A stretch of DNA of 64,000 nucleotides from Candidatus Bathyarchaeota archaeon (GTDB lineage Archaea > Thermoproteota > Bathyarchaeia > Bathyarchaeales > Bathycorpusculaceae). The notes under the pieces are model-generated. The model was not told the DNA's origin and did no database searches. It saw only the letters and a program-made list of their open reading frames with translations. Location: positions 384,001 through 448,000 of the forward strand of contig CAVRFW010000009.1 of the NCBI GenBank assembly GCA_963720565.1, read 5' to 3'. Of this stretch, positions 2,799 through 9,117 are shown piece after piece. A program made the translations under genes and the position numbers. Position 1 is the stretch's first letter, and every line of letters begins with the position of its first letter.

Positions 2799-3102
2799 AG
2801 AAAACAGCATTAGCACTAGCATTTGCATCGTTGCTGTTAGCCATTCAATAATGGCTGGAATGTAACCTTTTGATGTGGCAGAAGCAGACTATTATCCCCC
2901 GCCATCCTTCGAAGTTTTTTCTCTATTCCCTCCACCTGTGGTGTATTCAAATGTCTCTGTCCTGCTCTAAGTTCGTTTCAACGTTTTGCCAAGTGAACCC
3001 GACATCACTGTCATCCGTTACAGTCTGGATGGAAAAGCCAACATCACACTTGGTAATTTAACAAAAGAAGGCAAAGTATGGTATTGGACTAACAGCGCGC
3101 GC
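2795..3102 (+). pseudogene. Decayed, truncated paralog of the same secreted-protein family
   Basis: MKKTALALAF start overlapping the previous stop, internal stops and frameshift, YSLDGKANIT motif, ends at GCGCGCGC 3095-3102. Confidence 0.65.
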
Positions 3103-3208
3103 TTGTGGTTCCTTGGAGTGGTCAGTTCTGCTTATAAGGACCATTAAAACTAAATCAGGGAGCAGTCTAGAATGAGATGGATAACTTCAGAATCTGTGGG
3201 GACGTAAA

Positions 3209-3574
3209 ATGGAACCCAAGAAGTCGTTCAAAACTATAGATGAATACATCTTAAGTTTTCCAAAGAATGTGCAAAATATTTTGCAGGAACTGAGGCAAGT
3301 CATAAGAGAGACTGCACCTGAAGCTGAAGAGGCAATTAGCTATCAGATGCCTGCTTTCAGATTGAATGGCATCTTGGTGTATTTTGCAGCTTTTAAGAAT
3401 CATATTAGTTTTTTCCCTACTTCTTCAGCCATTGAGGAGTTCAAAGAGAAATTGTCTCCTTATGAAATAAGCAAGGGCACAGTTAGGTTTCCCATGAATG
3501 AGCCGATTCCATTTGACTTGATAAAGGAAATGTTGAGGTTTAGAGTTAAGGAAAACTTGAGTAAGAAGAAATAA
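3209..3574 (+). CDS. DUF1801/YdhG-like protein
   Basis: TIDEYI...APEAEEAISYQMPAF...YFAAFKNHI...KGTVRFP. Confidence 0.9.
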   Translation: MEPKKSFKTIDEYILSFPKNVQNILQELRQVIRETAPEAEEAISYQMPAFRLNGILVYFAAFKNHISFFPTSSAIEEFKEKLSPYEISKGTVRFPMNEPIPFDLIKEMLRFRVKENLSKKK

Positions 3575-3674
3575 CGGAAGCACATGCAATAAAACATATT
3601 TCAATTTGGAGCATAGAGAAAACTTTGCTGCGTATTCATAAAGGAAGAATCTCAATAATCAGAATAGTGACAAA

Positions 3675-3878
3675 ATGAGTCCAATGGACTTCATGGTGTT
3701 TACTCTACTTGGACTGTTAGCACTAGTTGGAGCTAATGCAATACTTTGGTCAATAGCAAAAAAAGCAGAACATGCTGAGAAGAAAGAAACTCAGACCTTA
3801 ATCGTTAGCGTTATTGCCTATGCTATTTGCATGGCCTTTTTGGCTCTGTTCTATTCTTACGGCACTCCAATAGCATGA
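3675..3878 (+). CDS. Small two-TM membrane protein
   Basis: 67 aa, two hydrophobic segments, GTGA SD-like upstream. Confidence 0.65.
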   Translation: MSPMDFMVFTLLGLLALVGANAILWSIAKKAEHAEKKETQTLIVSVIAYAICMAFLALFYSYGTPIA

Positions 3879-3981
3879 CCAACTCTGTAATACTCTCTTT
3901 CTTGGTGCGTAGAGAAAACTTTGCAGAACAAACCTAAACTCTTTAATCTAAAAATACTATAATAACTAGTAGGGAATACAT

Positions 3982-4377
3982 TTGAAGAGGCTATTGTATT
4001 GGGTTCTCTTCATTGTTCTACTGCTTGTGCCTATTGTGATTAACTTTGTCTTTATAGTTGATATTCTTCTTTTCGCCCAGAGAGCCTTTGCATATTATAG
4101 GTATGTTACGCCAGATGTTCTTTTGAGGGATATTCTATTCGCAGAGGGAGCTGTGCTTCTTGTTTTTGGAGCTCTTGTTGGCGGAGTCACTCTGTATAAT
4201 GCTTGGGTTCCAACAGATGTTAGAAAGGCACAATTCACAGAGTATATTTGGAACTGGAAGAAGATAAGGGAAGAACGCAATTTTCCAACTGGATTGATGG
4301 TTGGATTGGCACTCATAGCTTTTGGAATTATCTATGTTTTGGTGGCAATATTCTTTCCAGGTTTTCCAGTGCAGTAG
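3982..4377 (+). CDS. Three-TM membrane protein, unknown function
   Basis: 131 aa hydrophobic ORF with upstream TTTAA box. Confidence 0.7.
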   Translation: MKRLLYWVLFIVLLLVPIVINFVFIVDILLFAQRAFAYYRYVTPDVLLRDILFAEGAVLLVFGALVGGVTLYNAWVPTDVRKAQFTEYIWNWKKIREERNFPTGLMVGLALIAFGIIYVLVAIFFPGFPVQ

Positions 4378-4461
4378 GAATCATTTGGTTTGTGAGCGTA
4401 GAGAAAAATCTAAAATCAAAGGTAGACCAAATGTAACAAAAGACTCTACAAAGTGATAGTC

Positions 4462-4737
4462 ATGTCTAACAAGTTTAAATTAATGGTTTTGGTTAACATC
4501 TTGTTGGGTGTGTTTTTCGTTGCTCTCAATTTTTTGTGTAGCTCTCTTGCTACTGGTGACCATCGTGCTCTATGGAGTCCTCTATAGTTAACGTTTTACA
4601 ACATTTATGCTTTAGGAGACATTGGTGCTGCATTTCCTAACTTTGCTTTCTACTTCTTTTGGGTCTCAACAATAGTCAATCTATATTTCATAATCATGCT
4701 TGGAAGAAGCAAAGAGACAAAACATAACCCAACCTAA
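4462..4737 (+). pseudogene. Small membrane protein interrupted by in-frame TAG (4585-4587)
   Basis: Manual translation MSNKFKLMVLVNILLGVFF...WSPL*LTFY...PNFAFYFFWVSTIVNLYFII...*; not in ORF track. Confidence 0.6.
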
Positions 4738-4850
4738 AATGCGTTTATTCTTTTTGGTGCGTGGACACAACTCCCAAATATTTTTTTTGATTTGGATTTA
4801 GCGATAATGCTTTTACATTCAATAAGAATCATTATTAGCTAGGATCACAG

Positions 4851-5264
4851 GTGAAAGAGAAAACAATAGCAATTCTTCTAATCGCCATTATTGCTTTTTC
4901 CATTGCTGGTTGGGCTGTTTACAGTCAATTCACTCAAGAATCTCCAGACTCAACTATAAGGGTAGAAATCTCAGAGTTTAGTTGGAGAAGTGGCGTTGAC
5001 TCTGCCCCTGGTTGGGAGGGTATAATTCTTAGAAACATGGTTAACATAACAATCCAAAACAGTGGTTCAAAGAATGTTAGTGGATTAACTTTAACGGTTA
5101 AAGTAGTGTATGATGGAAATGAAGTTATACATTCAGAAGGTTTCTCTAAAAATATTGATGTGCTTCATGCTGGAGAAAGCCTAAAGATTTCAGAATATGT
5201 TTATTCTTATGTGAGCTTTCAGACCAGAAGGAGCAGAATGTGTCAGCACACTGCTTCAAGGTAA
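4851..5264 (+). CDS. Membrane-anchored Ig-like protein, 3' end probably frameshifted
   Basis: N-terminal TM; VNITIQNSGSKNVSGL...LHAGES. Confidence 0.6.
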   Translation: MKEKTIAILLIAIIAFSIAGWAVYSQFTQESPDSTIRVEISEFSWRSGVDSAPGWEGIILRNMVNITIQNSGSKNVSGLTLTVKVVYDGNEVIHSEGFSKNIDVLHAGESLKISEYVYSYVSFQTRRSRMCQHTASR

Positions 5265-5737
5265 TACTGTTTTGGATAATAGAACAGACCCAATAACTTG
5301 GGATTGAGAAACGCACATGAAACAAAGATGCTTTAAAACATCTTATTTCATCAAAAACTGGCCTGAAAACACTCTATAAGAGCCACAGAATGCCTGGTTC
5401 AATACACTTTCTTCTTGGACTTATGATTTTCTTGTATGGAGGAAAAACTGTCTAAGATGCTCATGCAAGTGTGAATCTATCCATGCTAAAACAGAATAAT
5501 CTAACATTGATCCATGGAAATTGAGCTAAATCAACATTGACCTGGAGCTTAGTCCTTCATCAGCCTTTCCGCCTGTGTAGATGAACTACTATACCATGGT
5601 GAAGCTCTATGGATAAAATACCGTTGTTACCGTTGATCCGCAAAGAGTGTGCTAGGGCATTGGCAAGAAGATTTGAGCTGAATAGAATGCTGAGCCAATT
5701 TCCCATGAATGGCTTCAAGGGATATCAGTCCTGAATT

Positions 5738-6490
5738 CTTGAAATGTTTGAAGTGAAAAAACAGAAATCTGGTGTCTAAGTAGTTTCAGTTTTGCTTTTG
5801 ACAGGACTTTATGCATTCTACAAGAGATTCGAGGTTTTCTACGTCTTCATTTAAGGTGACGAAATTGCCAACTAGGCTGACTATTTTTGTGGGAATAATT
5901 ATTACTACCTTGCTTAAGAAAGGTCTCTTGAATCCAAGTTCTGTCGCAGCATTATCCGTCAAACCGACCTCTAAGCCTGTAACTTGCCAGTTGCTGAGTT
6001 CTACGTCAAATCCTTCAATTTCCCCAATAGCCTTGCCTTTGGCACCAACTACTTTCTTGCCTTTGAGTTCAACGGAGCTAACCAAAGTTTCTCTTTCTGC
6101 AATATCTTCAAGATTTCTAATTGGCTCTCTAAGGGTTATTATGTCGCCAACAGTTTTTACAAGCTGGGTTGGTAAACATACTGTTATTTTGCTTAGGAAT
6201 GGTTTTTTGAATCCGAGTTCTGCGGTAGCCTCATCACTCAAGTTGACATTGAAAGTGTTGGCTTGCCAAGTGTTTGAATTGATGTTTACGCCATCCACTT
6301 CTCCCAGTATGTAACCTTCAGACCCGACTACTTTCTTACCCTCTAAAACAGTAGGATTCACTGTAAATCACCCATTTTGATAATAGTGCTTGCTTATCTA
6401 AATAAATATGCTAAACTAACATCAGGTTTGCAAAAAAACTAAAATCTTTTGATTGTTTATGGAAGCCCTTGAAATGTTTGAAGTGAAAAA
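5738..6490 (+). repeat. Perfect 23-bp direct repeat CTTGAAATGTTTGAAGTGAAAAA (5738-5760, 6468-6490)
   Basis: Identical copies flank the PRC-barrel gene. Confidence 0.9.
5786..6361 (-). CDS. Tandem PRC-barrel domain protein
   Basis: Two internal repeats LxGKKVVGxxGxxxGExxG...WQ...ATELGFKxPFLSK. Confidence 0.85.
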   Translation of the reverse strand: MNPTVLEGKKVVGSEGYILGEVDGVNINSNTWQANTFNVNLSDEATAELGFKKPFLSKITVCLPTQLVKTVGDIITLREPIRNLEDIAERETLVSSVELKGKKVVGAKGKAIGEIEGFDVELSNWQVTGLEVGLTDNAATELGFKRPFLSKVVIIIPTKIVSLVGNFVTLNEDVENLESLVECIKSCQKQN

Positions 6491-6560
6491 GACGACCGTA
6501 ATTGCTCAGGCTTTTAATGTTTATTAGAGCATGTCTTTACTTAGTGGTTTAGTGAGCCAA

Positions 6561-6941
6561 ATGGTTGACCACACGATTGTGCATTTTGAAATTCCTGCAG
6601 ATGATGTGGAAAAGCTGAGCAAATTCTATTCGAAGCTGTTTGGTTGGAAGATAGTTAGGATGCCTGGTGAAACTGAGTACTGGGGAATCCAGACTGTTCC
6701 TGTTGACGAAAAAGGAATGCTTCTCAGAAATGGCGTCAATGGTGGGATTATGAAGCGGCAAAACCCTGAGCACAAACCAGTGAATTACATTGCTGTTGAA
6801 TCCGTGGATGAATACGTCAAGAAGATTGAGGAATTAGGCGGCAAAGTATTGGTTCCCAAAATGGAGGTTCCTGGTGTGGGTTGGTGGGCTATGGCGCTGG
6901 ACCCAGATGGAAATCAGTTTGCCATTATTCAAGGCATGTAA
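6561..6941 (+). CDS. VOC/glyoxalase-family protein
   Basis: IVHFEIPADD...FYSKLFGW...VESVDE...GGKV...DPDGN. Confidence 0.9.
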   Translation: MVDHTIVHFEIPADDVEKLSKFYSKLFGWKIVRMPGETEYWGIQTVPVDEKGMLLRNGVNGGIMKRQNPEHKPVNYIAVESVDEYVKKIEELGGKVLVPKMEVPGVGWWAMALDPDGNQFAIIQGM

Positions 6942-7032
6942 ATCTTAGTGGCCAAAATTCCCGATCTTTTTTCTTAAATAATTAGCTTCTTAACTGTTTG
7001 TGAAGCAAAAATAGATTGGACCGTTTCTAATG

Positions 7033-7773
7033 TTAATAGTGCAATTTACGAAGGAGTCTTTTCTGTTCTATTTCAGTTATCTTTCCACTCCTAAGTTCCC
7101 ATTCTGTAAAATTTCTGAATTTTGATGGTCTAGTGAAGATTACATAGTTATGTTGATCCAAGAGTTTAGCTAAAGTGTGCCCTCTGCATGATTGTTCAAT
7201 TTGTTTTTTTGCTTCAGCATAAGAGAGGTTCTTTTCTTCCATGCAGCTTGCTATTGCCTCTTTCGCTTCTTTTTGCATTTTTGGCAGAAATTCCCAAACA
7301 TAAGCTGTTCCATAATCTTTGTTAACGTTTTTCAATATCCCTGCTCTAATTTTTCTATCCCACATAACCATTAATTTAGGCAAAATTGTATGAAGTGCTT
7401 TTGAAGCGTCTGTTGATTGGTGCTTGTCGCTCAAGTTTTTGGCAGTCTTATCAAATATGTGGATGATAGATTTCTCAACTTGCTTGTTGTCAAGGTTGAT
7501 GTTATCTATACTTTCATTCTTTAAGAGCTGGATATGAGGCGCTATTTCACTATAGAGACGCTGAAAAGTCTCAGGTTTTCCAACAAAGAAAGGGTCCCAT
7601 GACCTGATAAATCTCAATAGTTTTTTCGCTTCGCCATTGTTGACAGTTTCTGTCCATTGCTTAACATCTTTTTGCCTCATGTAGTCGTCGTAAAGTTCTC
7701 CCATTGGTTCAATTTCATAATAGGCTTTGTGAGTGATCTCAAGGTCACGATAATGCATTTCATAGTCTCCCAA
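7033..7773 (-). CDS. Hypothetical protein, possibly HhH/DNA-glycosylase-like fold
   Basis: ASKALHTILPKLMVMWD and TLAKLLD motifs. Confidence 0.6.
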   Translation of the reverse strand: MGDYEMHYRDLEITHKAYYEIEPMGELYDDYMRQKDVKQWTETVNNGEAKKLLRFIRSWDPFFVGKPETFQRLYSEIAPHIQLLKNESIDNINLDNKQVEKSIIHIFDKTAKNLSDKHQSTDASKALHTILPKLMVMWDRKIRAGILKNVNKDYGTAYVWEFLPKMQKEAKEAIASCMEEKNLSYAEAKKQIEQSCRGHTLAKLLDQHNYVIFTRPSKFRNFTEWELRSGKITEIEQKRLLRKLHY

Positions 7774-8117
7774 ACGGTCTTTCTTCTAGTTGGCAAAATT
7801 ATATTTTACTGAGTTGAGGGAAAAACTTTGTGCAGCTGCAACTTTGCAGACTATCACCCAAGGTCTTGCCGCTCAATGTCTGTTCATGATGTTTTTTCGA
7901 CTTCGACCCAACCAAACCATTCTGTTAGTGTAACCTGAGTTTTGAGTCTTAATTAGGTTCCTATGATTTAAAATGAAGGTACACAGATTATCTTAGTCAA
8001 GACACTAGCAGGAATCATCTATGTCTGCACTAAGTATCAGAGAAATATCAGGGAAAACTTATAGCGCTGATGTATTTTTAGTTTAAGAACGAGTTAATGG
8101 TCTAGGGTTGGCAGAGA

Positions 8118-8399
8118 ATGTCTCCAAAGAAAGAAGCTTTCAGAGTTCTTCCTTCCAGTCAAAAAATCAAAATTTTTCAAAGAGAAGCTAAGCAGCTGAT
8201 TAATGGTCCCTATGACTGCCCTAAATGTGGCAAGACTCTATTGCAGATTGTGATATCGACCAAGAAAAATGAAGTACATGCTGTTTGCGTTTGTGGGATA
8301 GATGAACATTTGACGTATGCTCCAGTCTTTCAAGGTGTAGATTACTACAGCAAGTTTTTAGATAAATGGAAAAGAGAAAATAGGAGAAGGTTGTATTGA
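8118..8399 (+). CDS. Elf1-like Zn-ribbon protein
   Basis: YDCPKCG...AVCVCG...VDYYSKFLD resembles Elf1. Confidence 0.55.
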   Translation: MSPKKEAFRVLPSSQKIKIFQREAKQLINGPYDCPKCGKTLLQIVISTKKNEVHAVCVCGIDEHLTYAPVFQGVDYYSKFLDKWKRENRRRLY

Positions 8400-8576
8400 G
8401 TTGTGCTTCCTGTATTTTATTAGGTACTGGGTTTTGGGGATTGGAATCTTGTTCCAACACCGCGCGTGTTTATGGAACTAGCCCCGATTGCCTAGTTCGG
8501 CTCTAAGGTTTTTCCGTTAAGTCCTTTCAGCATTTGCAGTCGAAAGAAGAAAGAACGAATACTATGTTGAAAGAAT

Positions 8577-8744
8577 ATGGAAAGACAGATATCCGGCTCT
8601 GCATATATTATCTGTGGAGAAGGTTTTTTGAGCAAACGCAGGTTTTTTGATGCAACAGAGTGTGGGGGCTGCATCTACAAAGGCGGCAGTTACTGTTGGG
8701 GTCAATGCTCTTTGAACATCTGGAAAAGAGACAGAGAATACTAA
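8577..8744 (+). pseudogene. Cys-rich remnant, possibly the C-terminal SPASM part of a radical SAM gene
   Basis: Manual translation ...ECGGCIYKGGSYCWGQC...; follows CGCGCG at 8461. Confidence 0.3.
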
Positions 8745-9117
8745 TCCTTTTTAGATTGTGCAGAGTGAAGGCGGAAAGAGAAGAAAAGAGTTCTGATAGA
8801 ACATTTCTTGTGAGAAAAAGAGGGAGAGGGAAAGAGTCTATTTTGAAGTTGTTGGTTCCCTCTTTACTGGTGTGTTTGATAGCAAAGTACTCAATGCTAT
8901 TTGCGTAAGTTTAATCTCTGTTTCTTTAGCTTCGTTTTCAAGAATCTTCGTGTTGTTGAAGCTTTGAGTTTTCCGGGATAGGCTTTGGCTCTTTCCCTCA
9001 AATAATATTAGGCTATGAAAATATATAAGAATTGCGTACTGCGGATACAGCCAGGCTTCAAGCCATTAATTAGTATGTTTGAAGCGAAAGGAATGAGGGT
9101 TCTATCTCGAGAAGCGG

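Follow-up and report, generated by a model that had tools for sequence, protein, structure and literature searches.

An attC-free gene-cassette array tied to suicidal SSV-type integrases in Bathyarchaeia

The stretch of DNA analysed here (the window) comprises 64,000 nucleotides of Candidatus Bathyarchaeota archaeon, positions 384001-448000 of contig C9 of the source genome G000 (2.09 Mb, 88.8% complete). It contains a row of small genes punctuated by a short motif, which an earlier note made from the sequence alone (the original prediction) had read as a gene-cassette array. The feature is real and unusual: it is an attC-free cassette array tied to suicidal integrases of the SSV (Sulfolobus spindle-shaped virus) type. 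In array direction, the full layout consists of a tRNA gene with its att, an N-terminal integrase piece, int(N), pointing back into the tRNA, a head site, a series of cassettes each followed by a site, the C-terminal integrase piece, int(C), and att. Sites occupy one strand and the integrase the opposite one, and the units, of ~600 bp with one gene in either direction, are found in different orders at different tRNA loci. Both this architecture and the shuffling at the site are shown by the loci compared below. The best explanation overall is probably a cassette array carried by SSV-type elements whose integrase recombines head and sites. The window would then be, with similar probability, an orphan piece of the array type that such elements carry in Bathyarchaeia.

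The site is an imperfect inverted repeat of ~23 bp with the consensus AGTTTT-N11-AAAACT or, more fully, AGTTTT-GG(A/T)GCGT(AG/CT)AG-AAAACT followed by TT(G/A)C. It had been described as short, asymmetric and unlike attC. It is indeed no attC: the boxes RYYYAAC...GTTRRRY occur in none of 216 sites, and no stable fold is predicted (mean free energy -1.3 vs -0.9 kcal/mol for shuffled sequences). It is not simply asymmetric, having inverted 6-bp arms 11 bp apart, with at least four of six arm matches in 180 of 224 sites. Conservation reaches ~2 bits per position across genera and the flanks are free. In the window, three matches with up to three mismatches compare with 0.02 expected by chance, and none of 100 shuffles reaches three. 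All 19 copies found in G000 at this threshold fall in four islands rather than after core genes, each cluster on a single strand (C3 168470-169510; C5 11879-22753; C9 368197-371278; the window). Allowing four mismatches adds the copy at 4391 in the window, one more copy on C5 and five scattered chance hits. The clusters lie in or beside DNA of 38-40% GC vs ~45% (the C3 cluster being unflagged by a 5-kb scan), and every one is downstream of a tRNA gene: Arg(CCT), Trp or Arg(TCT).

Across genomes, three of 61 match with up to two mismatches, namely G000 itself, its congener G002 (four copies, same tRNA locus) and one genome with a single hit. The three-mismatch scan of 151 genomes returns mostly background (0-2 hits, as in the control), and at least three hits are confined to G000 (19), G075 (8), G002 (4) and G099, G109 and G052 (3 each). 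The exact pattern occurs in 54 metagenome stretches (53 loci) among the matches listed and in 10 stretches from genomes, seven on contigs titled Bathyarchaeia or Bathyarchaeota and three being bacterial singletons; viral contigs yield no exact match. A position weight matrix (PWM) scan of related Bathyarchaeia, which the original prediction had proposed, identifies 224 sites in 59 regions (G000, its congener, other Bathyarchaeia metagenome-assembled genomes (MAGs) and metagenomes). None of these regions is mixed-strand, and the reversed control gives one hit. This set omits duplicates and single chance hits (L046, L081, L087, L089, L091, L094, L095, L096); 12 more redundant rows were dropped for the counts of gene direction, head flanks and integrase direction given below, and 15 for the de-duplicated count of breakpoints. 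After de-duplication 152 sites remain in 44 regions, 35 of which have at least two, and one MAG carries 26 copies over five contigs. Two origins of the motif were rejected. An origin from a tRNA 3' end or primer-binding site is not supported, as no G000 tRNA ends in the complement of the motif beyond the common CGCACCA and a search for reverse transcriptase was negative. Neither consensus nor orientation fits a dif/Xer site.

The genes between the sites point either way. Among 51 sites with an open reading frame (ORF) of at least 90 amino acids (aa) within 200 bp on both sides, the flanking ORFs, called mechanically, are forward-forward in 12 cases, divergent in 15, convergent in 14 and reverse-reverse in 10. 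Similarly, the 97 inter-site segments of up to 1.5 kb comprise 35 with one forward ORF, 24 with one reverse ORF, 6 with two and 32 with none of that size; the median length of 110 inter-site segments is 612 bp. Reverse single-gene units confirmed by Pfam include nitroreductase, MntP and ICMT genes. The motif, said to close each gene, therefore bounds units on both sides whatever the direction of the gene, and the earlier view that it is not simply a promoter can be extended to terminators. A reading of the motif as an everyday regulatory signal (promoter, operator or terminator) of genes that are duplicated and regulated together is accordingly largely refuted and has almost no probability left. 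The right arm does resemble the BRE/TATA region of archaeal promoters, it is common to a second motif that precedes surface-protein genes, and TATA-like boxes often follow sites. Against this, convergent and divergent arrangements are as frequent as tandem ones under constant site orientation, core genes lack sites and the cargo genes are mutually unrelated. Small membrane proteins of two paralogous families, conserved at the ends and variable in the middle, recur often in the C3, C5 and C9 arrays of G000 and at 4462-4737 of the window. A unit of 228-233 bp without long ORF (L035 2313-2541, L079 2206-2439, L055) carries the second motif and resembles the promoter-only cassettes of integrons.

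Units move at the site. In BLAST blocks of at least 150 bp and 80% identity, 73 of 168 ends fall in a site on both sequences, and 80 do so on the query side, vs a random mean of 12.7 and a maximum of 25 in 1000 trials. After de-duplication, site windows make up 5.5% of the span and hold 66 of the 147 unique block ends; the loci are kin, so that P values from this test overstate. Restricted to non-coding DNA, of which site windows make up 18%, the figure is 66 of 121. The window contributes three such units, each with other neighbours elsewhere: 3606-3917 is 84% identical to a C5 unit from site position 0 into the next site, 3902-4407 matches exactly from site to site in L038 (81%) and L058/L053 (76%), and 4796-5322 is 85% identical to a G002 unit that is followed by a site. 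The 22 homologous unit pairs are always alike in orientation and differ in order. L058 occupies the same tRNA-Leu/tRNA-Arg(CCT) locus as the C3 array, yet holds other units, one of which, a GNAT unit, is 97% identical to one in the C5 array. Likewise, L044 and L094, with 98% identity over the 3.3 kb that end at the head, carry different cassettes from there on.

Sequence comparison also places the exchange within the site. Fourteen pairs have only the upstream flank in common and 39 only the downstream flank (small and non-independent sets); in these, bases up to +10 track the upstream unit and those from +16 the downstream unit. Heads without a right arm cease matching at about +8 to +11. Together these locate the exchange zone at ~+9 to +15. 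The left part of the site thus moves together with the upstream unit, and the AGAAAACTT arm goes with the downstream one. That the cassettes are site-bounded and mobile is very probable. Unit ends and synteny breaks fall in the motif, and the core of the original prediction (single-gene cassettes bounded by sites, no attC, a recombinase outside the window) is supported at the level of sequence.

The small ORF with a CxxC motif that points to the tRNA heads the C3, C9 and G002 arrays and is the N-terminal piece, int(N), of a tyrosine integrase of ~410 aa. The integrase gene is whole in L044 (2014-3243, minus strand) and G152:C82 and interrupted by one stop in L093. The protein matches PF16795 (E 9.8e-10) and phrog_5127, and its best PDB sequence match, a weak one, is SSV1 Int (E 0.043). 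Residues R257, K307, R350, R373 and Y383 are invariant in 52 integrase sequences. They fit the catalytic set R..K..KxxR..R..Y of SSV1 Int, with which the C-terminal part aligns, and the K-x-x-R, G-R and H-Y motifs are as in SSV1 Int. The top Foldseek rows for its AlphaFold model (mean predicted local distance difference test score 78.5) are archaeal Xer and SSV1 Int, with no match at E<=0.001. The N-terminal domain is a CxxC beta-sheet of no named family, for which the Atlas holds only unnamed archaeal clusters, under 0.9. The gene contains one half of a tRNA (5' half in sense or 3' half in antisense), the defining trait of suicidal integrases (PMC7253208). L044, L093 and at least 42 of 120 homologues among the matches listed are near full length (at least 93% of the query), the tRNA-derived peptide is present in most of 33 homologues examined, and the family matches 45 of 151 related genomes; no relatives were found in viral contigs. 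Stacks of at least three integrase pieces in the same orientation, that is tandem insertions, occur at G151:C8 (three copies), G078:C18 and G002:C15. In the target tRNA-Arg genes, insertions in the D-loop region differ, some with short duplications (G000 C3 167680-167834, L032 10245-10366, L058 ~1170-1270); they are either non-canonical introns or insertion scars.

Several observations link this enzyme to the sites. In 19 site-bearing regions, all 23 integrase hits run opposite to the sites. At 28 of 36 int(N) positions the integrase start is preceded by a conserved head, the site variant of which begins 72-92 bp from the start codon of int(N). Moreover, 26 of 134 internal sites carry at least 11 of 16 bases of the left flank of the head vs none of 134 controls, which places the origin of the site in the head. 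Different first cassettes can follow one and the same integrase and head. L041 is a complete element of 1.5 kb, with tRNA-Thr, int(N), head, two units, int(C) and an att repeat of 45 bp. After two units, L044 resumes the sequence found before the integrase in L094, a pattern that a circle or tandem repeat would produce. The candidate recombinase does lie outside the window as originally proposed, and the enzyme linked to the sites is a tRNA-targeting SSV-type integrase rather than a serine or IS110 enzyme: no serine resolvase and no reverse transcriptase were found in G000, and IS110 is represented by only two pieces ~55 kb away. Given mobile, site-bounded cassettes, we consider it fairly likely from these sequence associations that the SSV-type integrase does the recombining at the site.

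A number of points weigh against this assignment and the reading built on it, besides the kinship of the loci. In G000, int(N) is found at two tRNAs and no convincing int(C) was found; the window array has neither. The cassette site has no sequence relationship to the tRNA att, which the integrase must recognize as well, and the geometry of the site, 6-bp arms around an 11-bp spacer, is not the usual layout of a core site. The internal sites of G000 retain no remnant of the left side of the head (4-10 of 16 bases). Protein similarity alone retrieved 18 int(N) positions, of which 13 have the head motif and only three a full site, so that many elements of this integrase family have no such array. 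In four contig sets, no joint at the site among the joints listed and no cassette circle was seen, which proves nothing. Finally, an intact tyrosine recombinase of another family (478 aa) adjoins the C5 array at tRNA-Trp. Four more cases of a head with a site come from genomes chosen for holding sites. Of 20 regions retrieved through the integrase, three have a cassette site beside int(N) and many are without any intergenic repeat. Six integrase-first regions in other genera (L128, L129, L132, L133, L142, L143) have their own, different intergenic repeats between cargo genes, and in the repeats of L128 and L142/L143 a T-rich left arm is followed, 11 bp on, by a similar right arm.

The same cassettes could be served by another recombinase, for example the 478-aa protein, a further integrase of Bathyarchaeia or an Xer-like enzyme of the host, with the SSV-type element acting only as the carrier. 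We regard this as unlikely. It would account for the position of the only intact tyrosine recombinase found in G000, for orphan heads and arrays, and for the scarcity of full sites at integrase-first loci (3/18). However, the 478-aa protein has no tblastn hit in the site-bearing loci L032-L096, the head abuts the start of int(N) at a nearly fixed distance, internal sites carry pieces of the head, and the search of G000 turned up neither resolvase nor reverse transcriptase. The 478-aa recombinase belongs to an integrated plasmid- or virus-like element at tRNA-Trp (L004, G000 C5 22800-29427), which also holds a weak primase-like ORF and in which no att repeat was found. Decayed integrases of another family are present in L006 (G000 C5 65587) and L008 (C13 120594), where they end just upstream of tRNA-Arg(GCG) and tRNA-His on the same strand.

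In the mechanism that we favour, with the SSV-type integrase as the enzyme, intact integrase would be made by free circles or tandem insertions, would use a second class of site besides its own tRNA att, and may act in trans on orphan arrays such as that of the window. Recombination between two sites would excise units as circles, which would insert mainly at the head. More speculatively, new cassettes might form through recombination of the head with A/T-rich intergenic stretches that resemble the right arm, in promoter or terminator regions; the gene size of the units would then be explained with no need for reverse transcription. Such capture at promoters is weakly supported: the right arm is mildly enriched in non-coding DNA (21 of 62 vs 21% expected; one control 9-mer gives 3 of 7), and in L157 the head runs, from about +8, into a surface-protein gene with the second motif.

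Two other routes to the same arrays bear on these steps. The site could be a copied piece of the integrase promoter, with shuffling by recombination of low specificity or at microhomology, as described for IntpTN3 at longer homologies. The remnants of the left side of the head, of variable length, in internal sites and the degenerate core of the site would agree with this, and an SSV-type integrase with homology-mimicking activity is on record (PMC5495485, in the part covered). However, this activity is reported there for ~100 bp or more vs ~20 bp of identity here, the inverted arms are kept across genera between free flanks, and the exchange zone is narrow. We rate this explanation as improbable, slightly below that of another recombinase. 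Alternatively, the array could grow as a CRISPR array does, each acquisition at the head duplicating the head site. In L041 the three sites do share most of the left 19 bp of the head. In G000 and L093, however, internal sites differ in type from the head of the same array, and from locus to locus the left halves follow the upstream unit, which makes such growth very improbable. For the recombining SSV-type integrase, a wider statement can be made with only slight preference over its denial. Such arrays would be an independently evolved analogue of integrons, in which a suicidal tRNA-targeting integrase also captures and reshuffles single genes, together with their promoters, at a short double-stranded site that stems from the DNA upstream of the integrase itself. 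Its arrays would reach a dozen or more cassettes and move between tRNA loci and species, related lineages using diverged sites.

The window array, all on the forward strand, begins earlier than its first gene, where the original prediction placed its start. An orphan head site (attI-like) had been overlooked at 3106-3172; it matches sequence directly upstream of the integrase start codon elsewhere (95% over 43 bp with the head beside int(N) at tRNA-Arg(TCT) on C9, 95% over 58 bp with L071) and ends in a site variant with a partial right arm. In place of int(N), it is preceded by GCGCGCGC at 3095-3102. Such a run directly precedes both orphan heads of G000 (the other at C5 ~16770), and 88 are present in the genome. 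The four motif copies at 3606, 3902, 4391 and 4754 are confirmed in position and letters, and lie 31, 23, 13 and 16 bp past the stop codons at 3574, 3878, 4377 and 4737. Cassette 1 carries a DUF1801 protein gene of 121 aa (3209-3574), an identity that holds with PF08818 at E 3.7e-20, and is followed by site 1 (3602-3628, PWM 35.7 bits). Cassettes 2 and 3 hold ORFs of 67 aa (3675-3878) and 131 aa (3982-4377). Both look membrane-like, as had been stated, and neither can be assigned to a Pfam family above the cut-off. Site 2 (3898-3924, 41.2 bits) is a consensus copy, and site 3 (4387-4411, 22 bits) is degenerate. Cassette 4 (4462-4737) is the small membrane-protein pseudogene already recognized, with an internal TAG at 4585-4587; its family, with a variable middle, is present in all four G000 arrays. 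Neither it nor cassette 1 has a whole-unit match among the 59 site-bearing regions. Site 4 (4750-4772) has a decayed right arm and three mismatches to the core, and falls below the 12-bit PWM listing.

Cassette 5 (4851-5322) comprises a membrane-anchored protein gene and a tail. The gene had been ended at 5264; it is frameshifted at ~5220 and runs to 5307, and contigs of all four runs lack one base at ~5220 vs the window. A site follows the G002 homologue, and the same closing site has been lost in the window. With two broken genes, two decayed sites and the last site missing, the window array looks like an ageing remnant. No int(C) and no att repeat were found with it, and there is an int(N) 20 kb upstream at tRNA-Arg(TCT), the window cluster sitting 20 kb deeper in the Arg(TCT) island than the C9 cluster. 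Its flanks are not syntenic in the congeners G001-G004, so that no empty allele can be defined there.

Among known systems, integrons are the closest in organization. In the covered part of the archaeal integron paper (PMC9668308), they share a tyrosine recombinase with a divergent adjacent insertion site and one-gene units bounded by direct sites; together with clusters of attC sites lacking integron-integrases (CALINs), they also share a variable first cassette, orphan arrays, units without ORF, and membrane and detoxification cargo. As in integrons, the putative primary insertion site lies beside the integrase start and the array points away. In contrast, the present arrays have no attC boxes or hairpin and a site of only ~23 bp. 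Their enzyme is SSV-type rather than IntI, which is marked by a specific insertion near patch III; the two are set apart here by family matches (only PF16795 and phrog_5127) and motifs. The platform of the arrays itself integrates in tRNA genes. Their cassette genes come with promoters of their own, unlike the mostly promoterless, co-oriented cassettes of integrons, and among 59 single-ORF units 35 are forward and 24 reversed. The array therefore works like an integron without being one: no IntI, no attC, genes in both directions. The head is analogous, not homologous, to attI. The main text of the integron paper, the part covered, contains neither 'Bathyarch' nor 'SSV'.

The carrier passes as an SSV-type integrated element. 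As in SSV1, pTN3 and pT26-2 (PMC7253208, PMC8371274, PMC5495485, each covered in part), attP lies within int, the target is a tRNA half, int(N) and int(C) are split with duplication of att, and the catalytic residues are SSV-like. It differs by the second site family that punctuates the cargo, of which the covered parts of these papers make no mention, by the use of both 3'-half antisense and 5'-half sense targets, and by the N-terminal CxxC domain. Stacked copies are common here, in contrast to the 73-integrase Thermococcales set, for which the part covered gives no tandem integration (PMC7253208). The pdif (XerC/D) modules of Acinetobacter (PMC6449649, in part) resemble the arrays in that short recombination-like sites bound small accessory modules that recur in other contexts. 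However, pdif sites are 28 bp long (11-6-11), flank modules in inverse orientation and depend on host Xer; here all sites are direct, of another consensus and in no mixed-orientation region, and are tied to an element-borne integrase. GInts (PMC5385486) and tycheposons (bioRxiv 2020.12.28.424599) are also integrase-bearing cargo islands of very variable content, but have different enzymes, and the parts of these papers covered report no site between each gene. The literature search, which covered passages of openly available papers, found no description of such arrays, which leaves room for a brief earlier mention.

The window and its genome contain further repeats. The second motif, GTCAAGAAACCTTTACAAAAA, is present at 5-27, 657-695 and ~7991-8001 of the window, with TTGACT/AGTCAA inverted repeats nearby. 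Of its 18 copies in the genome, eight are on C7 54316-88294. It has its right arm in common with the cassette site, and most copies stand before forward surface-protein genes. A unit at 20-640 is bounded by this motif in the window and G002 and by cassette sites in L058, and contigs of three of the four runs join window position 7989 to 9 at the motif. The motif could act as an operator-promoter module, serve as a capture substrate or form a second family of sites. In addition, an exact direct repeat of 23 bp (5738-5760 and 6468-6490) flanks a reverse PRC-barrel gene, forming a 730-bp unit, and contigs of all four runs join position 5761 to 8808. This repeat may mark a further, third type of boundary between units.

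The textbook example of a gene-cassette system is the integron, which is detected through attC hairpins and IntI; screens of this type are blind to arrays of the present kind. The best reading is a convergent, attC-free, integron-like cassette system carried by tRNA-integrating elements, for which an intact candidate enzyme and a 23-bp site are now named and directly assayable. If this is true, cassettes would have a second way of being captured, in an archaeal group that ranks among the most abundant in sediments. It would also give a testable form to the old idea of gene capture by SSV-type integrases, reportedly put forward by She et al. in 2001/2004. Moreover, it would provide a concrete source for the hypervariable islands of Bathyarchaeia and a reason why self-destroying integrases and their int(N) remnants persist.

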